Shown here: piece by piece, positions 6,078 through 47,774 of the stretch
Layout of the letters: the number at the start of each line of letters is the position of its first letter
Position numbering within the stretch: position 1 is the first letter of the stretch
Assembly (NCBI GenBank): GCA_963816145.1
Contig: CAWFJP010000014.1
Location: forward strand, 160,001 to 224,000
From: an uncultured delta proteobacterium
GTDB lineage: Bacteria; Desulfobacterota; Binatia; UBA9968
Reading direction: 5' to 3'
DNA: 64,000 nt
Position numbers and translations under genes: made by a program
The notes under the pieces: model-generated
The model's input: only the letters and a program-made list of their open reading frames with translations
The model's database searches: none
Told to the model about the DNA's origin: nothing

Positions 6078-7079
6078 TTATTTACCATACTGCCGGCCCA
6101 TCTCGTCGAAGAAGCCGGAACTCTCCAACTCATTGACATAGCGCGCTTCGATGAAACCATCCGGATTGGCGCCGGCGACTTGCGGGCTGGAGCGCGACAG
6201 CAGGTAGAGCATCGACTTGGCCACGCTCACCGTCGGCGTCGGTTTGTACATTAATCGTTCTTTGTACAGATTATAGATCGTGTTCAGGACCTCTTGATCC
6301 TGAGTCGCGACGTATTTTTTCAAGACGGTGACAGCGTAGTCGGGCTTGGCTTTGAAAAGATATAGACCTTCGATCCAAGCTTTAAGGAAGCGCAGTGTGG
6401 TATCGGGATTCTTGGCAACGTAGGAGCGGCGCACCAGGATGCCGGAGCCGGCGATTTCGATCGGTAGTTTGGAATAGTCGATGAGCGTGCGAAAGCCCAT
6501 TTTGTTCGCTGTCAGGGTCTGGATGCCGGCGATGATCGCGCCGTGAATTCTACCAATCTGTAAACCGCTCAAGCGGGCGCCGAGATCGCCCACCGGCAGA
6601 ATCGTGACATCTTTCTCAGCGATTCCGTTCAAGCGCAGCCCTTCGCGCAGCAAAATATCGGTGAGCGACCCTTGAGTGCTCATGCCGAGGATCTTGCCGC
6701 GCAGTTGCTCGGTGCTGGTGATGTTTTTTTGGACCACCAGCGAATGCTCCAACTGGTTCATCGGCGTGGCGATGAGCGCCGTGTCGGCGCCGCGCTGATA
6801 GGCTTCCAACGCCGGCATGCCGGAGTGATTGACGAATTGCACGCTGCCGCCGATCAGCGACATGATGCTGCGTGGGCCGCCCGAGATGTAGACGAGATTG
6901 ACGTCGAGGCCATGTTTTTCGAATAACTTAGCTTCCTTGGCCACCCAAGTTTGCCCCATGGAGCCCGAGATGGCGCCGTAGCTGACGTTGATTTTCTCCA
7001 ACGCCGCGGCCAGCGTTGGGCGGGCGAGGCTGCCGATAATCACCAGGGTGATTAGGACGGACGATAAGTGTGTCATCAT
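6078..7079 (-). CDS. ABC-type substrate-binding protein, NMT1/SsuA/TauA family
   Basis: Signal peptide, FEKHGLDVNL and LRGKILG motifs. Confidence 0.88.
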   Translation of the reverse strand: MMTHLSSVLITLVIIGSLARPTLAAALEKINVSYGAISGSMGQTWVAKEAKLFEKHGLDVNLVYISGGPRSIMSLIGGSVQFVNHSGMPALEAYQRGADTALIATPMNQLEHSLVVQKNITSTEQLRGKILGMSTQGSLTDILLREGLRLNGIAEKDVTILPVGDLGARLSGLQIGRIHGAIIAGIQTLTANKMGFRTLIDYSKLPIEIAGSGILVRRSYVAKNPDTTLRFLKAWIEGLYLFKAKPDYAVTVLKKYVATQDQEVLNTIYNLYKERLMYKPTPTVSVAKSMLYLLSRSSPQVAGANPDGFIEARYVNELESSGFFDEMGRQYGK

Positions 7080-43152: not shown

Positions 43153-43218
43153 ATTTGTTTGAATGAGCGGGAAGCCTGGGTTACAGCGCGAAGATGATCG
43201 CAAGGAGGATTGGATAGC

Positions 43219-44124
43219 ATGCGCGGTATAACACCGAGACGAGAACAGGGCATGGCCGATCCGGTGTTGGCCGAGATGGTTCATGCCACCGGGGCGACGG
43301 AGTCGCGTCACTACGCGGCGGTGAAGCCGATCATTCAAGCCTATCGCGCCAGTTGGGTGAAGTTGGCGCCGTTTCGCGACGGGCCGGTCAACCCCCAGCG
43401 CGTGCCGGTCGACGATCCGGCGGCGATGACGGCGCAGATCAAGGCGAAGGCGAGCGAGTGGGGCGCCAACTTGGTCGGCGTCTGCCGCCTGCAGCCGCAT
43501 ATGATCGATCTCGGCTCGGAAGTGTCCCACGAGTTTGTCATCGCCTGCTGCGTCGCCGAAGACTACGAAAAGGTGCTTCAAGGCCCGGACGCCGTCGAGG
43601 AAGAGGCGATGCGGACGTACGCGAAGTGCACCGAGATATCCACTGCGTTAGCTGCCTACGTCCGTGAGATGGGATATCCCGCCATCGCGCACCACAACGG
43701 CGCCAGCGAGGTGCAGGCGATCCCAATTTTCTACCAAGTCGGATTCGGCGAGCTCGGCCGGCATGGCAGTCTGATCAATGAAAAGTATGGCGCGAGCTTT
43801 CGCCCTGGTTTCGTCACCACCGATTTGCCGCTCGTCGAAGACCAGCCGCGAGAGTTCGGCGTTCAGGACTTCTGCATGAACTGCAACGTTTGCCAGCGCA
43901 ACTGCCCGGGCGACGCGATCCCGCAAGACCATGTCATGACCCATGGCATCAAGCGCTGGCTGATCGATTTGGAGAAGTGCTATCCGTATTCCCGCCTGCG
44001 CGAGGAGTATTGCCATCTCTGCGTCGACGTCTGCCCGTACAACGTGAAGTCGCATCCGGACACGTACAAAGCGCTTATGAAAGAGCGTAAACAGGTTGGC
44101 TATAAGACACCAAAGACTTATTGA
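43219..44124 (+). CDS. Reductive-dehalogenase/QueG-like 2x[4Fe-4S] protein (probably cobalamin-binding, no TAT signal)
   Basis: GANLVG, GFGELGRHG, VTTDLPL, FCMNCNVCQRNCP and C..CHLCVDVCP. ATG 43219 follows AAGGAGG. Confidence 0.85.
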   Translation: MRGITPRREQGMADPVLAEMVHATGATESRHYAAVKPIIQAYRASWVKLAPFRDGPVNPQRVPVDDPAAMTAQIKAKASEWGANLVGVCRLQPHMIDLGSEVSHEFVIACCVAEDYEKVLQGPDAVEEEAMRTYAKCTEISTALAAYVREMGYPAIAHHNGASEVQAIPIFYQVGFGELGRHGSLINEKYGASFRPGFVTTDLPLVEDQPREFGVQDFCMNCNVCQRNCPGDAIPQDHVMTHGIKRWLIDLEKCYPYSRLREEYCHLCVDVCPYNVKSHPDTYKALMKERKQVGYKTPKTY

Positions 44125-44203
44125 AGCGAGTTTGCACTAAGAGATCTCGGAAAAGAATATTTTCCCGCAAAGGCGCAAAGGCGCTAAGTTCGGAAAGGTT
44201 GGG

Positions 44204-44401
44204 ATGGAAAAGCTTTACGTCAATGCCATCGGACCCGACGGTGATGTCAGCACTGTCGGTTTGTTTTACTCGCAACCTGAAGCGCAAAAAACTGTTGACA
44301 TGCTGGGAACCAATCCCGAGCGAGTCGGTTATCGCTACGAAATCGTCGAAGCGGTGCGGCATGTGCTTTCAGAAAAAAATCCGCCAACCAGCAAGGAGTA
44401 G
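44204..44401 (+). CDS. Small hypothetical protein (65 aa)
   Basis: ATG start; stop lies 2 nt before the next ATG, and the ORF contains that gene's AAGGAG RBS. Confidence 0.5.
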   Translation: MEKLYVNAIGPDGDVSTVGLFYSQPEAQKTVDMLGTNPERVGYRYEIVEAVRHVLSEKNPPTSKE

Positions 44402-44403
44402 CC

Positions 44404-44955
44404 ATGCCCTATATCAAGACGATTCCGCCCACAGAGGCGACCGGAAAACTGAAGGAAGTCTATGAAACGGCGGGCGGCCCTTCGGCGGCGCGCGGCAAGG
44501 TCGCGATGGTGCGCCAGGTGCAAAGCCTCAATGCCGACGCGCTCGCCGCCTGGAGCGATCTTGGCGCAGCGATCATGCACGGCCCGTCGCGCCTGAGCAG
44601 GCGCCAGCGCGAGATGATCGCCACGGTGGTGTCGGCGACCAATCATTGCAGCTATTGAACGACTGCGCACGGAGAGGCTCTCCGTAGCGAAACCCACGAC
44701 GATCCGTTCGTCAAAGCGATTAAACAGGATTACACCAAGATTGATTTAACGGCAGCGGAGCGGGCCATGCTCGATTACGCGGTGAAACTGACGGTGACGC
44801 CGTCGAGCGTAACGGCAGAAGATGTTTTGATATTGCGCGCTCATGGGTTCGACGACCGCGATATACTCGACATCATCTACGTTGTTTGTTTGTACAATTT
44901 TAACGACCGGCTGGCCGACGCGACCGGCATCAAAGGGCATGATTTTCTTAGTTGA
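44404..44955 (+). CDS. AhpD/carboxymuconolactone-decarboxylase-like peroxidase selenoprotein (CxxU), 183 aa
   Basis: REMIATVVS..NHCSY-TGA(44656-44658)-TTAHGEAL continues in frame into ORF 44767-44955 (AMLDYA.KLT..P...NRLAD-like C-terminus). Confidence 0.9.
44666..44689 (+). promoter_or_regulatory. Bacterial SECIS-like hairpin
   Basis: CGC-ACGGAGA-[GGC]-TCTCCGT-A-GCG; G-initiated loop starts 17 nt after the UGA. Confidence 0.8.
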
Positions 44956-44994
44956 CATCGTCCGCCGCCGGGTGTGACGCACAGGTTGGCCATT

Positions 44995-45876
44995 ATGCCG
45001 TTCAGCTACGCCGAGTTCATGACTCAACTGATGGCGCCCAAGCCCTATCCAGCGCAGGCGGTTTTTACCGCGCCCCGGATAACGGCACTGCGCAAGCCGG
45101 TTGCAGAATGCACCCTCGGTGTCTTTACCAGCTGTGGCGCACAGCTGAAGGACGACCGACCGCTGGCCGAGACCAACGATCTTTCCTACCGGCTGCTGCA
45201 CCGTGACGTAGCGCTCTCGGAGCTGAAGATCAATCACATGACGCCGTCGCGCAAGTGGGCGCTGGAGGACTTGAACGTCGCTTATCCGCGCGACCGGCTG
45301 ATCGAGTTGGAGGCGGAGGGGGTTTTCAAGAAGCTTGCGCCCAGCGCCGTTTCCATGGTCGGTTCGATCACGTTGTACACGGAGCTTTTGAGCGATGCCG
45401 TGCCGCGGATCAAGCAAGAATTCGACCGGCAGGAAGTCGACCTGGTGCTGATCGTGCCGTTTTGACCGCAATGCCATCGGTCCGTGGGACTGATCGCAAG
45501 AGGACTGGAAGCGAGAGGTTTGCCGACCGTGAGCCTGAGCACCGTATGGGACATCACTCTGGCGGTAAAACCGCCGCGGCCATGCTTCCTGGATTTCCCG
45601 ATCGGCTGTCCGGTCGGCAAGCCGGGCATGCCGGAATTGCAGCGGCAAATACTGAAAGCGGTCTTCTCCCAGGCGGAGAAATTTACCGGTGATTGGGCGC
45701 TGCATGAGCTGCCCTTCCAGTGGGCAAAGGATGGCAGCCGTCATTGGGAGGAAGAGCTCAAGGATCTCTACCGGCGAGGCCTCGGCACGGTGGAGGCGCA
45801 TGTTGCGGATCATCGCCGTCGCGGTGAGGCGCTGATCGGTCAAGAGGAAGCGTTTGCGCTGCGCTGCAATTGCTAG
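44995..45876 (+). CDS. Glycine/sarcosine/betaine/D-proline reductase selenoprotein B (GrdB/PrdB)-like protein (UxxC), ~293 aa
   Basis: VDLVLIVPF-TGA(45463-45465)-PQCHRSVGLIARGLEARGLPTV joins ORFs 44974-45465 and 45484-45876 in one frame; also D.N..YP.DRL.ELE.EG and PPR..F..FP.G.P.G. Confidence 0.92.
45472..45498 (+). promoter_or_regulatory. Bacterial SECIS-like hairpin
   Basis: TGC-C-ATCGGTCC-[GTG]-GGACTGAT-C-GCA; GU loop starts 18 nt after the UGA. Confidence 0.8.
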
Positions 45877-45933
45877 CGTCCTGTCCACCCACTGACCGCC
45901 AGCCAATGAACGTATGAAAAGGAAGGTGCTGCG

Positions 45934-46719
45934 ATGATCGAACTCTATCACAACGACATGTCGGTGTGCGCGCAAAAGGTGCGTTTTACCCTGGCCGAGA
46001 AGAAACTTGCTTGGGACAGCCACCATATGAATCTGCGCGCCGGCGATCAGCAAAAGCCGGAATATTTGAAACTCAATCCCAACGCCCTGGTGCCTACCCT
46101 GGTCGACGATGGCACCGTTATTATCGAATCCACCGTGATCAACGAATATCTCGATGACGCGTATCCCGACCTGCCGCTGCGTCCGGCGGCCGCGACCGCG
46201 CGGGCGCGCATGCGTCTATGGACCAAACAGTTGGATGAAGGCGTTCACGCCGCGACCAGCGTGGTCAGCTCGGCGATCGCCTTTCGCTATCAAAAGCTCG
46301 CCATCGGCATGGAAGCGCTCGAAGAATTTCACAGGAAGATGCCCGACCCGGTGAAGCGCGAGAAGAGCTGGGAGAATGTCACCAAGGGCGTCGAGTCGCG
46401 CTTTTTCCCCGAGGCGGTCATGCGCTTCGACAAATTGCTTGGCGACATGGAGTCGGCCTTGAAAGACTCTCCGTGGCTCGCCGGCAAAGAGTTCTCGCTG
46501 GCCGATATCGGCTACGCGCCCTATGTTACCCGGCTCGATCACCTGCAACTGCAATTTCTCTGGGACAAGCGGCCGCACATTCCAGAATGGTACGATCGGC
46601 TGCGCGAACGGCGCGCGTATGGTGAGGCGCTGGAAAACTGGTTCAATCCCGCCTATTTGCCGCTGATGAAGGAAAAAGGATCGGAAGCGCGAGCCCGGGT
46701 CAAAGAGATCGTCGGCTAA
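45934..46719 (+). CDS. Glutathione S-transferase family protein (N-terminal SVC motif)
   Basis: LYH..MSVCAQKVR, LNP...VPTL, ES..I.EYLD and FSLADI. Confidence 0.9.
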   Translation: MIELYHNDMSVCAQKVRFTLAEKKLAWDSHHMNLRAGDQQKPEYLKLNPNALVPTLVDDGTVIIESTVINEYLDDAYPDLPLRPAAATARARMRLWTKQLDEGVHAATSVVSSAIAFRYQKLAIGMEALEEFHRKMPDPVKREKSWENVTKGVESRFFPEAVMRFDKLLGDMESALKDSPWLAGKEFSLADIGYAPYVTRLDHLQLQFLWDKRPHIPEWYDRLRERRAYGEALENWFNPAYLPLMKEKGSEARARVKEIVG

Positions 46720-46916
46720 AGAATTAGAGCATTGGAATCGAGACGAGACGATACGAGGCAAACTCCGGATCGGTTCTGGCTACTTTGGGCGGCGCCGGAA
46801 ACAAGGTGCGCGGCGCGACAGGTTGTTTGGCGACGGTGAAAAATGAAGTCCAGCGGCCGGTTCCCTGGAGTGGAGGAAGGTAACGAAGGCTAACACTCCG
46901 GTTAGACCGCTTGGTT

Positions 46917-47774
46917 TTAGGTAGTCGCCACCAGCAGTTCCTCTGAATTCTTTGGCGGAAGAAGGCCATCTGTCCTGCCCGCGAAGTAGCGTTGGGCAAG
47001 CGTAGCTGCCGATACGTGCTCAACCTCTCTAAAGCCGGCATCGCGGGCCAGTGTCAGCATCTCTGTTGGCGTGAAGAAGCTGATGAACGGCGTGCCGTTT
47101 GCTCGCGCCCCCGCTAGCGCTCGCTCAATCCCGGGACGCACCTCGGGGTCCGTCATCTCGATCGGAAGCAGGAATGACATGGCGAGTGTGGAGCCGGGAG
47201 CGAGCGCCGCGACCTGGCGCAGCGTCGCCGTAATCGCGTCCTTGGTCAGGTACATGCTGACACCGGTCGACGCCACGACCGCGGGCCGCTCAGGGTCGAA
47301 TCCCGACGCAGCCAGCCGCTCGCACCATGGATCGCCTGCCTCGAAGTCGACTGGCACGAGCCGCAAGAACGACGGAATGCCGAAGCCGAGTTCGACGAGG
47401 CGCTGGCGCTTCCACATCTGAGGGCCGGGCTGATCGATCTCGAACACGACCAGACGGGAGGCAAGCTCCGGCCGACGCTGGGCGAAGGTGTCCAAGCCCG
47501 CTCCAAGGATGACGTACTGCCCGACGCCACGGGCAGCTTGCTCCGCGACGAGATCTTCGATGAAGCGGGCGCGGGCCACGATGGAGGCGCGGAATGGCCG
47601 CGTGAACGGGCTCATGTCCGGACGGCTGCGCCATCCGTCGTCTGGAGCCGCCAGCTTCAAGCCGACTTCGTCTTCGAGTACGTGCGGCGGCGAGTCGACT
47701 TCGACATGCAGCGCCCGCCACAAGGCGACCCGCACCGCCGTGTTGTCTGGCGCCGCCACTTGCGTATCATGCAC
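46917..47774 (-). CDS. SAM-dependent methyltransferase (LCM/TcmP-like), cassette gene
   Basis: TA..VA..RA, R.RFIED, QYVILGAGLDT, FEIDQP and VDF. Confidence 0.9.
   Translation of the reverse strand: MHDTQVAAPDNTAVRVALWRALHVEVDSPPHVLEDEVGLKLAAPDDGWRSRPDMSPFTRPFRASIVARARFIEDLVAEQAARGVGQYVILGAGLDTFAQRRPELASRLVVFEIDQPGPQMWKRQRLVELGFGIPSFLRLVPVDFEAGDPWCERLAASGFDPERPAVVASTGVSMYLTKDAITATLRQVAALAPGSTLAMSFLLPIEMTDPEVRPGIERALAGARANGTPFISFFTPTEMLTLARDAGFREVEHVSAATLAQRYFAGRTDGLLPPKNSEELLVATT

Follow-up and report, generated by a model that had tools for sequence, protein, structure and literature searches.

The closest described relatives of the protein discussed here are PrdB and GrdB, the selenoprotein subunits of reductases with a pyruvoyl partner of the GrdE/PrdA type (PF09338). 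PrdB of the Clostridium sticklandii/Clostridioides difficile type carries a catalytic selenocysteine (Sec, U). Metagenome surveys describe a proline reductase (PR/PrdB) class with a UxxC motif and cysteine (Cys) homologues, which is abundant in ocean samples and also present in non-Stickland Deltaproteobacteria (PMC1088965; PMC2398784; PMC1794560; PMC1976440), and two reviews likewise list the proline reductase PrdB with its UxxC motif (PMC9312934; PMC13188914). A further member of the GrdB superfamily is FarB, which together with FarE forms the proposed fluoroacetate reductase of Cloacibacillus, a GrdB/GrdE-like pair in which Sec is proposed to attack a C-alpha–X bond other than C-N, namely the C-F bond of fluoroacetate, and thereby to cleave it (PMC10838667). 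Here we describe a PrdB-like gene from an uncultured delta proteobacterium (Desulfobacterota; Binatia; UBA9968), which lies in a 64,000-nucleotide stretch of the assembly GCA_963816145.1 (contig CAWFJP010000014.1, forward-strand positions 160,001 to 224,000). This whole stretch is referred to as the window, and positions are counted from its first nucleotide.

We consider the product of this gene to be a partner-independent, CxC-tailed selenoprotein of the PrdB/GrdB superfamily, which would act as a self-contained selenol/thiol reductase with a relay tail, and assign to this reading a probability of roughly 0.55. Its parts are not equally firm, and the evidence for each of them is given below.

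A PrdB-like gene with an in-frame UGA codon

The gene and its main elements are the following:
44995..45876, + strand: orphan PrdB-like selenoprotein gene, 293 codons followed by a TAG stop codon
45463..45465, + strand: in-frame TGA, encoding U157 at the head of U-P-Q-C-H-R; the Cys-form homologues have a Cys codon (TGC/TGT) here
45472..45498, + strand: hairpin of the selenocysteine insertion sequence (SECIS) type within the coding sequence, with a 3-bp lower stem, an 8-bp upper stem and a GUG loop
45730..45873, + strand: subfamily-specific C-terminal extension (residues 246–293), absent in true PrdB
45865..45873, + strand: codons of C291-N292-C293, the terminal CxC, directly before the stop codon

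With TGA translated as Sec, the gene forms a single open frame of 293 amino acids (aa), which starts with the ATG at 44995, in agreement with the MP(Y/F)S(F/Y) N-terminus of the homologues, places U157 in the context ...LIVPF-U-PQCHRSVGLIARGLEARGLPTV... and reads ...FALRCNC before the TAG. Open reading frame (ORF) calling with translation table 11 splits the gene into 44974..45465 and 45484..45876. Homology is uninterrupted through the TGA over all 293 residues, and Cys is found opposite U157 in 19/19 homologues (alignment A1), such that an in-frame UGA facing Cys is followed by continuing homology, as for bacterial selenoproteins. The search of cluster representatives also returned fragments that stop at residue 156 or start at residue 164, as expected of gene callers that halt at a Sec codon.

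Among 47 genome loci gathered with the family profile (numbered with the prefix L), codon 157 is TGC or TGT in 42 and TGA in four, the remaining locus (L065) being frameshifted, and Cys is the majority state at this position in the family. When 40 genomes of relatives were searched, seven were found to hold an orthologue with 62–78% identity over all 293 residues, and in all seven the codon is TGA; one of these genomes (G010) is unpublished, and no conclusion rests on it. The source genome encodes the full Sec machinery, with matches to selA (616 bits), selB (417 bits), selD (380 bits) and tRNA-Sec (74 bits) that each exceed the curated cut-off. On contig C30 of the assembly (562492-576851), selA, selB and selD are arranged head to tail, with tRNA-Sec approximately 10 kb downstream and all of them within 15 kb; selD has an in-frame TGA of its own.

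The preliminary description of the locus, made from the nucleotide sequence by itself, had called the product a GrdB/PrdB-like selenoprotein, a view that is backed by the profile matches (TIGR04483 and GRDB, both below their cut-offs; see below). Two separate genes for the halves in homologues, without any Cys/UGA alignment, would have spoken against it, but the homologues are encoded by single genes with Cys opposite the UGA.

A hairpin that accompanies the UGA codon

Bacterial SECIS elements are stem-loops that follow the UGA at a short distance and carry G-U in their apical loop. At this locus a GUG-looped hairpin begins after a spacer of 6 nt from the UGA, and the loop (45484-45486) begins 18 nt past the last UGA base. 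The lower stem pairs 45472-45474 with 45496-45498, one unpaired C lies on each side above it, and the upper stem pairs 45476-45483 with 45487-45494. The existence of an 8+3-bp hairpin with a GUG loop had been recognised in the preliminary description, which let the hairpin itself start 18 nt after the UGA, whereas this distance applies to the loop. An Rfam E-value scan of 44000-47000 returned no SECIS family. The one match inside the gene, to the Twister-sister ribozyme in its 3' part (45767-45845, + strand; 24.3 bits against a gathering threshold of 34, E 0.034), is probably due to chance.

Ten distinct Sec forms were compared (the window gene, L019, L058, L072, L080–L083, L037 and L060), whose upper stems all fit AYCRGUCC/GGACUGRU and close a GUN loop, in the same register. 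All eight upper-stem pairs are formed in 10/10 of these genes (80/80 cells), as opposed to three to six of the eight in 40 distinct Cys-form genes, and the GUN loop is present in 10/10 Sec forms but in only 1/40 Cys forms, so that the hairpin, taken as stem plus loop, occurs in 10/10 Sec forms and in 0/40 Cys forms. The stem changes seen among the Sec forms are one two-sided exchange, U-A to C-G in L080, and G.U to A-U in L037 and L060. In the proteins, the Sec forms all have S-V-G-L-(I/V) in place of the A-T-x-x-(I/V) of the Cys forms, a signature that, judged from the alignment, seems to reflect the constraint which the hairpin puts on the coding sequence. Since the hairpin tracks the TGA, the TGA is kept in the relatives and the genome holds the Sec machinery, the comparative evidence makes it nearly certain that the PrdB-like gene is a genuine selenoprotein gene, in which the UGA at 45463 is decoded as Sec, aided by the hairpin and by the selA-selB-selD-tRNA(Sec) cluster of the genome.

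Relationship to PrdB, GrdB and their relatives

Residues 26–245 of the PrdB-like protein match positions 17–236 of the 238 positions of the PrdB profile TIGR04483 (E 2.4e-33), with a score of 115.6 bits that remains far below the curated equivalog cut-off of 300 (NCBIfam). The NCBIfam models of GrdF, GrdH and GrdB match the region 81–220 only. Correspondingly, it is the C-terminal half of GrdB, GrdF and GrdH (approximately 435 residues) that aligns to residues ~81–220 of the PrdB-like protein, UxxC included, while the N-terminal ~200 residues of GrdB are absent from it. The search with the GRDB family that had been suggested at the outset did produce a match (PF07355, 17.5 bits), but one below the Pfam cut-off of 22 and confined to profile positions 268–344 of 347, so that the protein is not a full-length GRDB member.

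When 19 representatives were scanned with TIGR04483, one, P0206 (241 aa, 453 bits), was identified as a true PrdB, 17 scored below the cut-off, and P0132 had no match at E <= 1e-20. In the alignment with P0206, the stretch PFUPQCHRS...GLEARGL of the PrdB-like protein is placed opposite GGCGTCHRS...ACEAEGM, such that U157-P-Q-C160-H-R occupies the same column as C-G-T-C-H-R of the true PrdB, which is also the column of the Sec in clostridial PrdB. The resemblance to the active site of reductase selenoprotein B that had been noticed beforehand is thereby upheld. Furthermore, the superfamily residues D62, D92, G123, R195, P202, G204 and G208 are shared with PrdB.

Of 1900 candidates from a word-indexed search of 5.8 billion proteins, 301 were relatives; the 120 best of these are 267–314 residues long and 50–59% identical to the window protein, and where they bear a name, JGI's "D-proline reductase (dithiol) PrdB" prevails. 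Among the representatives of 50%-identity clusters, searched exhaustively and without a profile, 1004 proteins reached E <= 1e-3. The same genome encodes another short PrdB-like selenoprotein of the orphan kind (L018; C4:264069-264839, − strand), which is 32% identical, has the motif UPFCHE and is devoid of the CxC tail and the extension. Its orthologues in the genomes of relatives also have TGA, and the gene adjoins one that, judged by eye, resembles a TctC/Bug-type binding protein.

The C-terminal extension and the CxC tail

Alignment with true PrdB and with the other PrdB-like branches revealed that the extension of about 48 residues is present only in the branch holding the window protein, referred to here as the CxC subfamily, whereas true PrdB stops shortly past the column of residue 245, i.e. 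approximately 45 residues earlier. A conserved, closely spaced Cys pair forms the extreme C-terminus: CxC-COOH is found in 46/47 loci (CNC in 34, CAC in six, CGC in four and CDC in two), and in the 47th (L052) ...FAIRCNC is encoded in a shifted frame, as expected of a frameshifted copy. The same holds for the best 120/120 database hits (CNC in 119, CDC in one). The CNC tail, for which the preliminary description had named a lack of conservation as evidence against a resolving pair, has thus withstood that comparison. Both frameshifted loci are Acidobacteriota copies, with the shift located just before the tail in L052 (about 6840-6890) and in the active-site region in L065 (about 6400-6580), and are either pseudogenes or assembly errors.

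With these two loci dropped, 46 members (the window protein and 45 loci) were aligned for residue conservation. Invariant in 46/46 are U/C157, C160, H161, C291, C293, H81 and H273, as well as D62, D92, S120, S124, R195, D200, R249, W251, E252, Y259 and E284. A further set, C47, C197, C205 and H269, is conserved in the non-actinobacterial branch (36–39 of 46) and is jointly lost in the actinobacterial branch.

Predicted structure

AlphaFold2 with 135 sequences produced a model of the protein with a mean predicted local distance difference test (pLDDT) of 93.5 and a predicted template modelling score (pTM) of 0.93. In this model U157 and C160 are located at the start of the helix 158–173, which follows the strand 150–154 in a Rossmann-like alpha/beta core, and the extension forms three helices (251–261, 263–276 and 284–291), with pLDDT averages of 84, 80 and 73 for the last three blocks of ten residues. 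A PDB profile sequence search and Foldseek (E <= 1e-3), run with this model and with the one from 20 sequences (see below), found no solved relative with the PrdB/GrdB fold. VIA-align returned only generic alpha/beta sandwiches (LacI, SDR and CheY-like). Its best Z scores, 8.4 with the 20-sequence model and 7.4 with the 135-sequence model, are in a range common for this tool, so that none of these structures can be singled out as a fold relative.

A homodimer was predicted for P0006, a homologue with Cys by nature, at an interface score (ipSAE) of 0.83, compared with 0.00 for the best of three controls; this mark is attained by 20/30 proteins solved as pairs and by 1/23 solved as single chains. 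Agreement between the runs extends to 100% of the contacts, and the partner has a pLDDT of 94. The confident interface residues of P0006 (48–68, 110–114 and 131–144) include neither the tail nor the CxxC, residues outside this list being uncertain, and the predicted interface neither supports nor excludes a swap of the tails between the subunits.

Absence of a pyruvoyl partner

A profile search for PF09338 found no match in the window or elsewhere on its contig. The source genome does have nine PF09338 matches (approximately eight genes), all of them on other contigs, and six PF07355 matches on six contigs, each with a PF09338 gene nearby. The same six contigs hold full-length GrdB-like frames with one TGA each, while for one Gly_reductase gene (C1:405505-406683) the contig holds no GRDB match. 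Altogether the reductase genes are distributed over C27, C5, C31, C8, C29, C4 and C1, an unusually large set for a genome of 7.8 Mb, the closest named relatives of which are labelled Binatia or "delta proteobacterium." The source organism thus has several classical protein-B systems together with two orphan short PrdB-like selenoproteins.

Outside this lineage the picture is simpler. PF09338 was found in 0/10 genomes of other phyla that carry the CxC family, among them complete chromosomes of Amycolatopsis and of Lustribacter, the latter bearing three paralogues, the source genome with its matches serving as positive control for the search. In none of 52 loci does a PF09338 gene adjoin, as judged from clustering of the neighbouring ORFs and sampling with Pfam, no PF09338 profile having been run there. 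Within the lineage, PF09338 is present in 38/41 genomes and the orthologue in 8/41, and all eight genomes with the orthologue also have PF09338. A PrdA gene, which in proline reductase would be expected beside the prdB gene or in the same genome, is therefore absent from the contig and from the ten other-phyla genomes, although nine matches occur elsewhere in the source genome itself. Because PF09338 is lacking in 10/10 of the other-phyla genomes, the CxC family works without a pyruvoyl partner, and pairing in trans is a possibility for the source organism alone. The absence of a pyruvoyl partner asserted in the preliminary description consequently holds for the window, the contig and the other phyla, but its wording of "missing partner subunits" was too strong in view of the nine genome matches. 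Taken together, it is well supported that the CxC-tailed proteins are a separate subfamily without dependence on PrdA.

Distribution

In the database records the family is common as the Cys form in Acidobacteriota, Vulcanimicrobiota/Eremiobacterota and Actinomycetota, groups that are not known for Stickland fermentation. In a quick maximum-likelihood tree of 54 rows (long-branched outgroups; L052, L065, L069 and L079 left out; support given only by the Shimodaira–Hasegawa-like approximate likelihood ratio test, SH-aLRT) the Sec forms branch as a grade at the base of the non-actinobacterial clade, with two state changes required. Paralogues were observed on one Lustribacter chromosome (L023, L028 and L036) and on one Saccharopolyspora contig (L059 and L064); two to three paralogues per genome suggest a diversification of substrate or role.

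Near-identical DNA, at half or more of the sampled words, is present in 14 wetland and soil metagenome runs. Contigs of 151–186 nt from soil metatranscriptomes (X15/X16 and X17, of which X15 and X16 appear to be a single data set deposited twice) flank the UGA with 0 differing letters (45239-45389, 45528-45678 and 45534-45719), and zero-mismatch contigs are also found in the AhpD-like gene described below.

Gene neighbourhood

Two genes directly adjoin the PrdB-like gene:
44404..44955, + strand: AhpD-like "peroxidase-related enzyme" gene (TIGR01926, 143.6 bits), 39 nt upstream
45934..46719, + strand: glutathione S-transferase (GST) gene, 57 nt downstream

The AhpD-like gene is a second selenoprotein gene, with a TGA at 44656-44658 in the motif C-S-Y-U and a 7+3-bp hairpin that starts 10 nt past the UGA (z −2.17). 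Further upstream lie a gene for an Fe-S protein resembling reductive dehalogenases (RDH), an ornithine-cyclodeaminase-family gene and a LytB-like gene. The RDH-like protein (43210-44124, + strand; 304 aa) has a 4Fe-4S dicluster domain and a match below the cut-off to TIGR02486 (E 3.3e-34); it is 90% identical in L058, the closest relative locus, where it likewise precedes the PrdB-like gene. A terminator-like site (44235-44259) is located between the RDH-like and the AhpD-like genes, the scan having found 5 sites in total compared with 6.8 in shuffles.

By tblastn, the nine neighbours in the window were found only at the closest relative locus, and the LytB-like, RDH-like and GST neighbours are kept only there. 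GST genes are also located within 2 kb of the orthologue in L081 and L083. In three other relatives the orthologue is found among two GST genes and genes for an NMT1-type binding protein, an Amidohydro_2 protein and a luciferase-like monooxygenase. NMT1-type genes adjoin in Eremiobacterota loci, with gaps of 3 nt (L020) and 26 nt (L030), and an Amycolatopsis locus includes genes for an IclR regulator and a GCV_T-domain protein. Across 52 loci, local profiles identified NMT1-type proteins in 12, Amidohydro_2 in seven, luciferase-like monooxygenases in six and GST in four, which are leads at most. A conserved partner gene was rejected, since de novo clustering of the neighbouring ORFs of 48 loci gave no cluster present in more than 15 loci. 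In one Acidobacteriota group, the gene upstream encodes 207 aa; neither Pfam nor NCBIfam gave a match for it, and it shows no relationship to its counterpart upstream in L019.

Proposed mechanism and alternative explanations

Position 157 is likely to be a site of redox catalysis, since Sec and Cys alternate there and the column is identical to that of the catalytic Sec in PrdB. In the mechanism that we propose, Sec157 would attack the substrate and C160 would resolve the adduct to a Se-S bond, while C291-x-C293 would form a further dithiol, through which reducing equivalents would pass from an external donor to the Se-S centre. This donor might be glutathione together with the adjoining GST, thioredoxin or, at this locus, the AhpD-like selenoprotein. 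As for the substrate, R195, a residue conserved throughout the superfamily, points to a carboxylate, which might bear an alpha-substituent able to leave without imine activation. C-terminal Cys or Sec tails are known from high-Mr thioredoxin reductase (GCUG), mercuric reductase MerA, Erv2p (CGC) and the R1 subunit of class Ia ribonucleotide reductase. As in the CxC subfamily, a close Cys pair is situated in these redox enzymes at the extreme C-terminus after a helix, from where it could pass electrons, or a ligand, to a centre that is buried; their folds, however, are unrelated, and it is by analogy that we infer a role of the terminal CxC as a second, relay dithiol. The preliminary description had regarded the CxC as a built-in resolving pair; its conservation has been borne out, but "resolving" is probably the wrong word, the invariant C160 being the natural resolving residue.

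The fluoroacetate proposal implies that the chemistry of the superfamily need not be limited to C-N bonds, although FarB has the length of GrdB and a GrdE-like partner, and the proposal was derived from transcriptomics and has no tie to the CxC subfamily (PMC10838667). As a tentative extension, the CxC-tailed proteins might be widespread, self-sufficient, selenol/thiol-dependent C-X bond reductases of alpha-substituted carboxylates, which would cleave their substrates reductively in the manner of selenoprotein B, would need no pyruvoyl subunit and would be recharged by glutathione or thioredoxin via their own C-terminal dithiol; halo-acids, thioethers or glutathione conjugates and betaine-like compounds would be candidate substrates.

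Several observations weigh against a self-contained Sec reductase with a relay tail, or against single steps that lead to it. The folding energy of the hairpin alone is no better than chance (z −1.34 for an 86-nt stretch, with 18/200 shuffles equally good, and z −0.82, not significant, for the 60-nt stretch from the UGA), and the support for the SECIS is comparative, the contrast of Sec with Cys forms being the stronger evidence. Its covariation is thin, with one compensatory pair and a score that is attained by 55/500 shuffles, a control that is weak because the stem hardly varies among the Sec forms. The placement of the tail depends on the depth of the alignment, as AlphaFold2 with 20 sequences gave a pLDDT of 81.5 and values below 50 for residues 276–293, and the dimer was predicted for P0006, a homologue with 58% identity, rather than for the window protein. 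In the runs compared, no RNA-library contig bridges the UGA, the gene junctions are likewise unbridged and parts of the stretch have no cover; moreover, such contigs are no proof of transcription, since RNA libraries can contain DNA. The AhpD-like neighbour is found in the source genome only and is not at the matching position in L058, and, as the neighbours are not conserved across phyla, neither a donor nor a substrate can be read from the context.

Among the alternatives, the main one is that U/C157, C160, C291 and C293 form a binding site for a metal or metalloid (Zn, Fe-S, Hg, As or Cu), to which H161, H81 or H273 might contribute. The CxC tail would in that case serve as a ligand or a metal-delivery arm, a role that the Cys pair at the C-terminus has in MerA, rather than as a disulfide relay. 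The invariance of these four Cys and three His in 46/46 members would fit a metal site, as would the further set of C47, C197, C205 and H269 in the non-actinobacterial branch and the order that the tail gains in the deep model, which would be expected of a ligand. Yet position 157 alternates between Sec and Cys, a swap that is found at redox-active cysteines (PMC1794560), the same column is that of the catalytic Sec of PrdB, and no metal-binding family was matched in Pfam or NCBIfam, so that we regard metal binding as unlikely. It appears quite improbable that the protein is instead an ordinary protein B selenosubunit, which pairs in trans with a GrdE/PrdA-type protein of the genome, for example the product of C1:405505-406683, and takes part, as a substrate-specific subunit of the classical kind, in the reduction of an amino acid or betaine. 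With nine PF09338 matches (approximately eight genes) against six PF07355 matches, at least one PF09338 gene is unpaired, all eight lineage genomes with the orthologue hold PF09338, and some neighbours have links to amino acid metabolism (an ornithine-cyclodeaminase-family gene in the window, a GCV_T gene in L062 and one for aminotransferase IV in L054). Against such pairing speak the ten other-phyla genomes and the neighbourhoods of the 52 loci, within the limits of the clustering and Pfam sampling given above, and co-presence in the lineage says little when PF09338 occurs in 38/41 genomes and the orthologue in 8/41.

Hardly any weight attaches to the view that the TGA is a true stop, which would leave two short ORFs or a pseudogene and make the hairpin a by-product of the coding sequence. 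The separate ORFs called under table 11 and the insignificant folding energy agree with it, but homology is unbroken across the TGA over 293 residues, TGA is retained at the same codon in seven relatives with 62–78% identity, the hairpin goes with TGA (10/10) and not with Cys codons (0/40), and the genome has the complete Sec machinery. A partner-independent selenol/thiol reductase with a relay tail is thus the reading that we prefer.

Implications for the PrdB family

In the metagenome surveys of Zhang, Gladyshev and co-workers, the window gene would fall into the PR/PrdB class. The portions of these surveys that concern the class treat it as proline reductase and count such proteins among the most abundant selenoprotein classes of ocean metagenomes; they neither separate a CxC-tailed subfamily nor discuss the missing PrdA, and their supplements may say more. 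Phrase searches found no literature on "PrdB-like" proteins or a CxC-tailed PrdB family, although supplementary lists may hold the sequences. Automatic annotation labels the CxC-tailed proteins "D-proline reductase PrdB" or "selenoprotein B family." The CxC subfamily is distinguished from PrdB by its extension and by genes that have no PrdA gene beside them, and its chemistry probably differs from the database label.

If the subfamily is indeed separate, Stickland-type proline reduction inferred from such hits would be wrong. The CxC family offers a clean natural comparison of Sec with Cys, in which the SECIS hairpin is gained or lost accordingly, and it has spread mainly as the Cys form through soil Acidobacteriota, Eremiobacterota and Actinomycetota. 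Since Cys forms occur in culturable actinomycetes (Amycolatopsis, Saccharopolyspora and Pseudonocardia), the function is directly testable. Should the proteins be C-X bond reductases, much of the "proline reductase" surveyed in soil and ocean would be a different, aerobic-compatible enzyme, with a role in detoxification or in the scavenging of organic sulfur or nitrogen.

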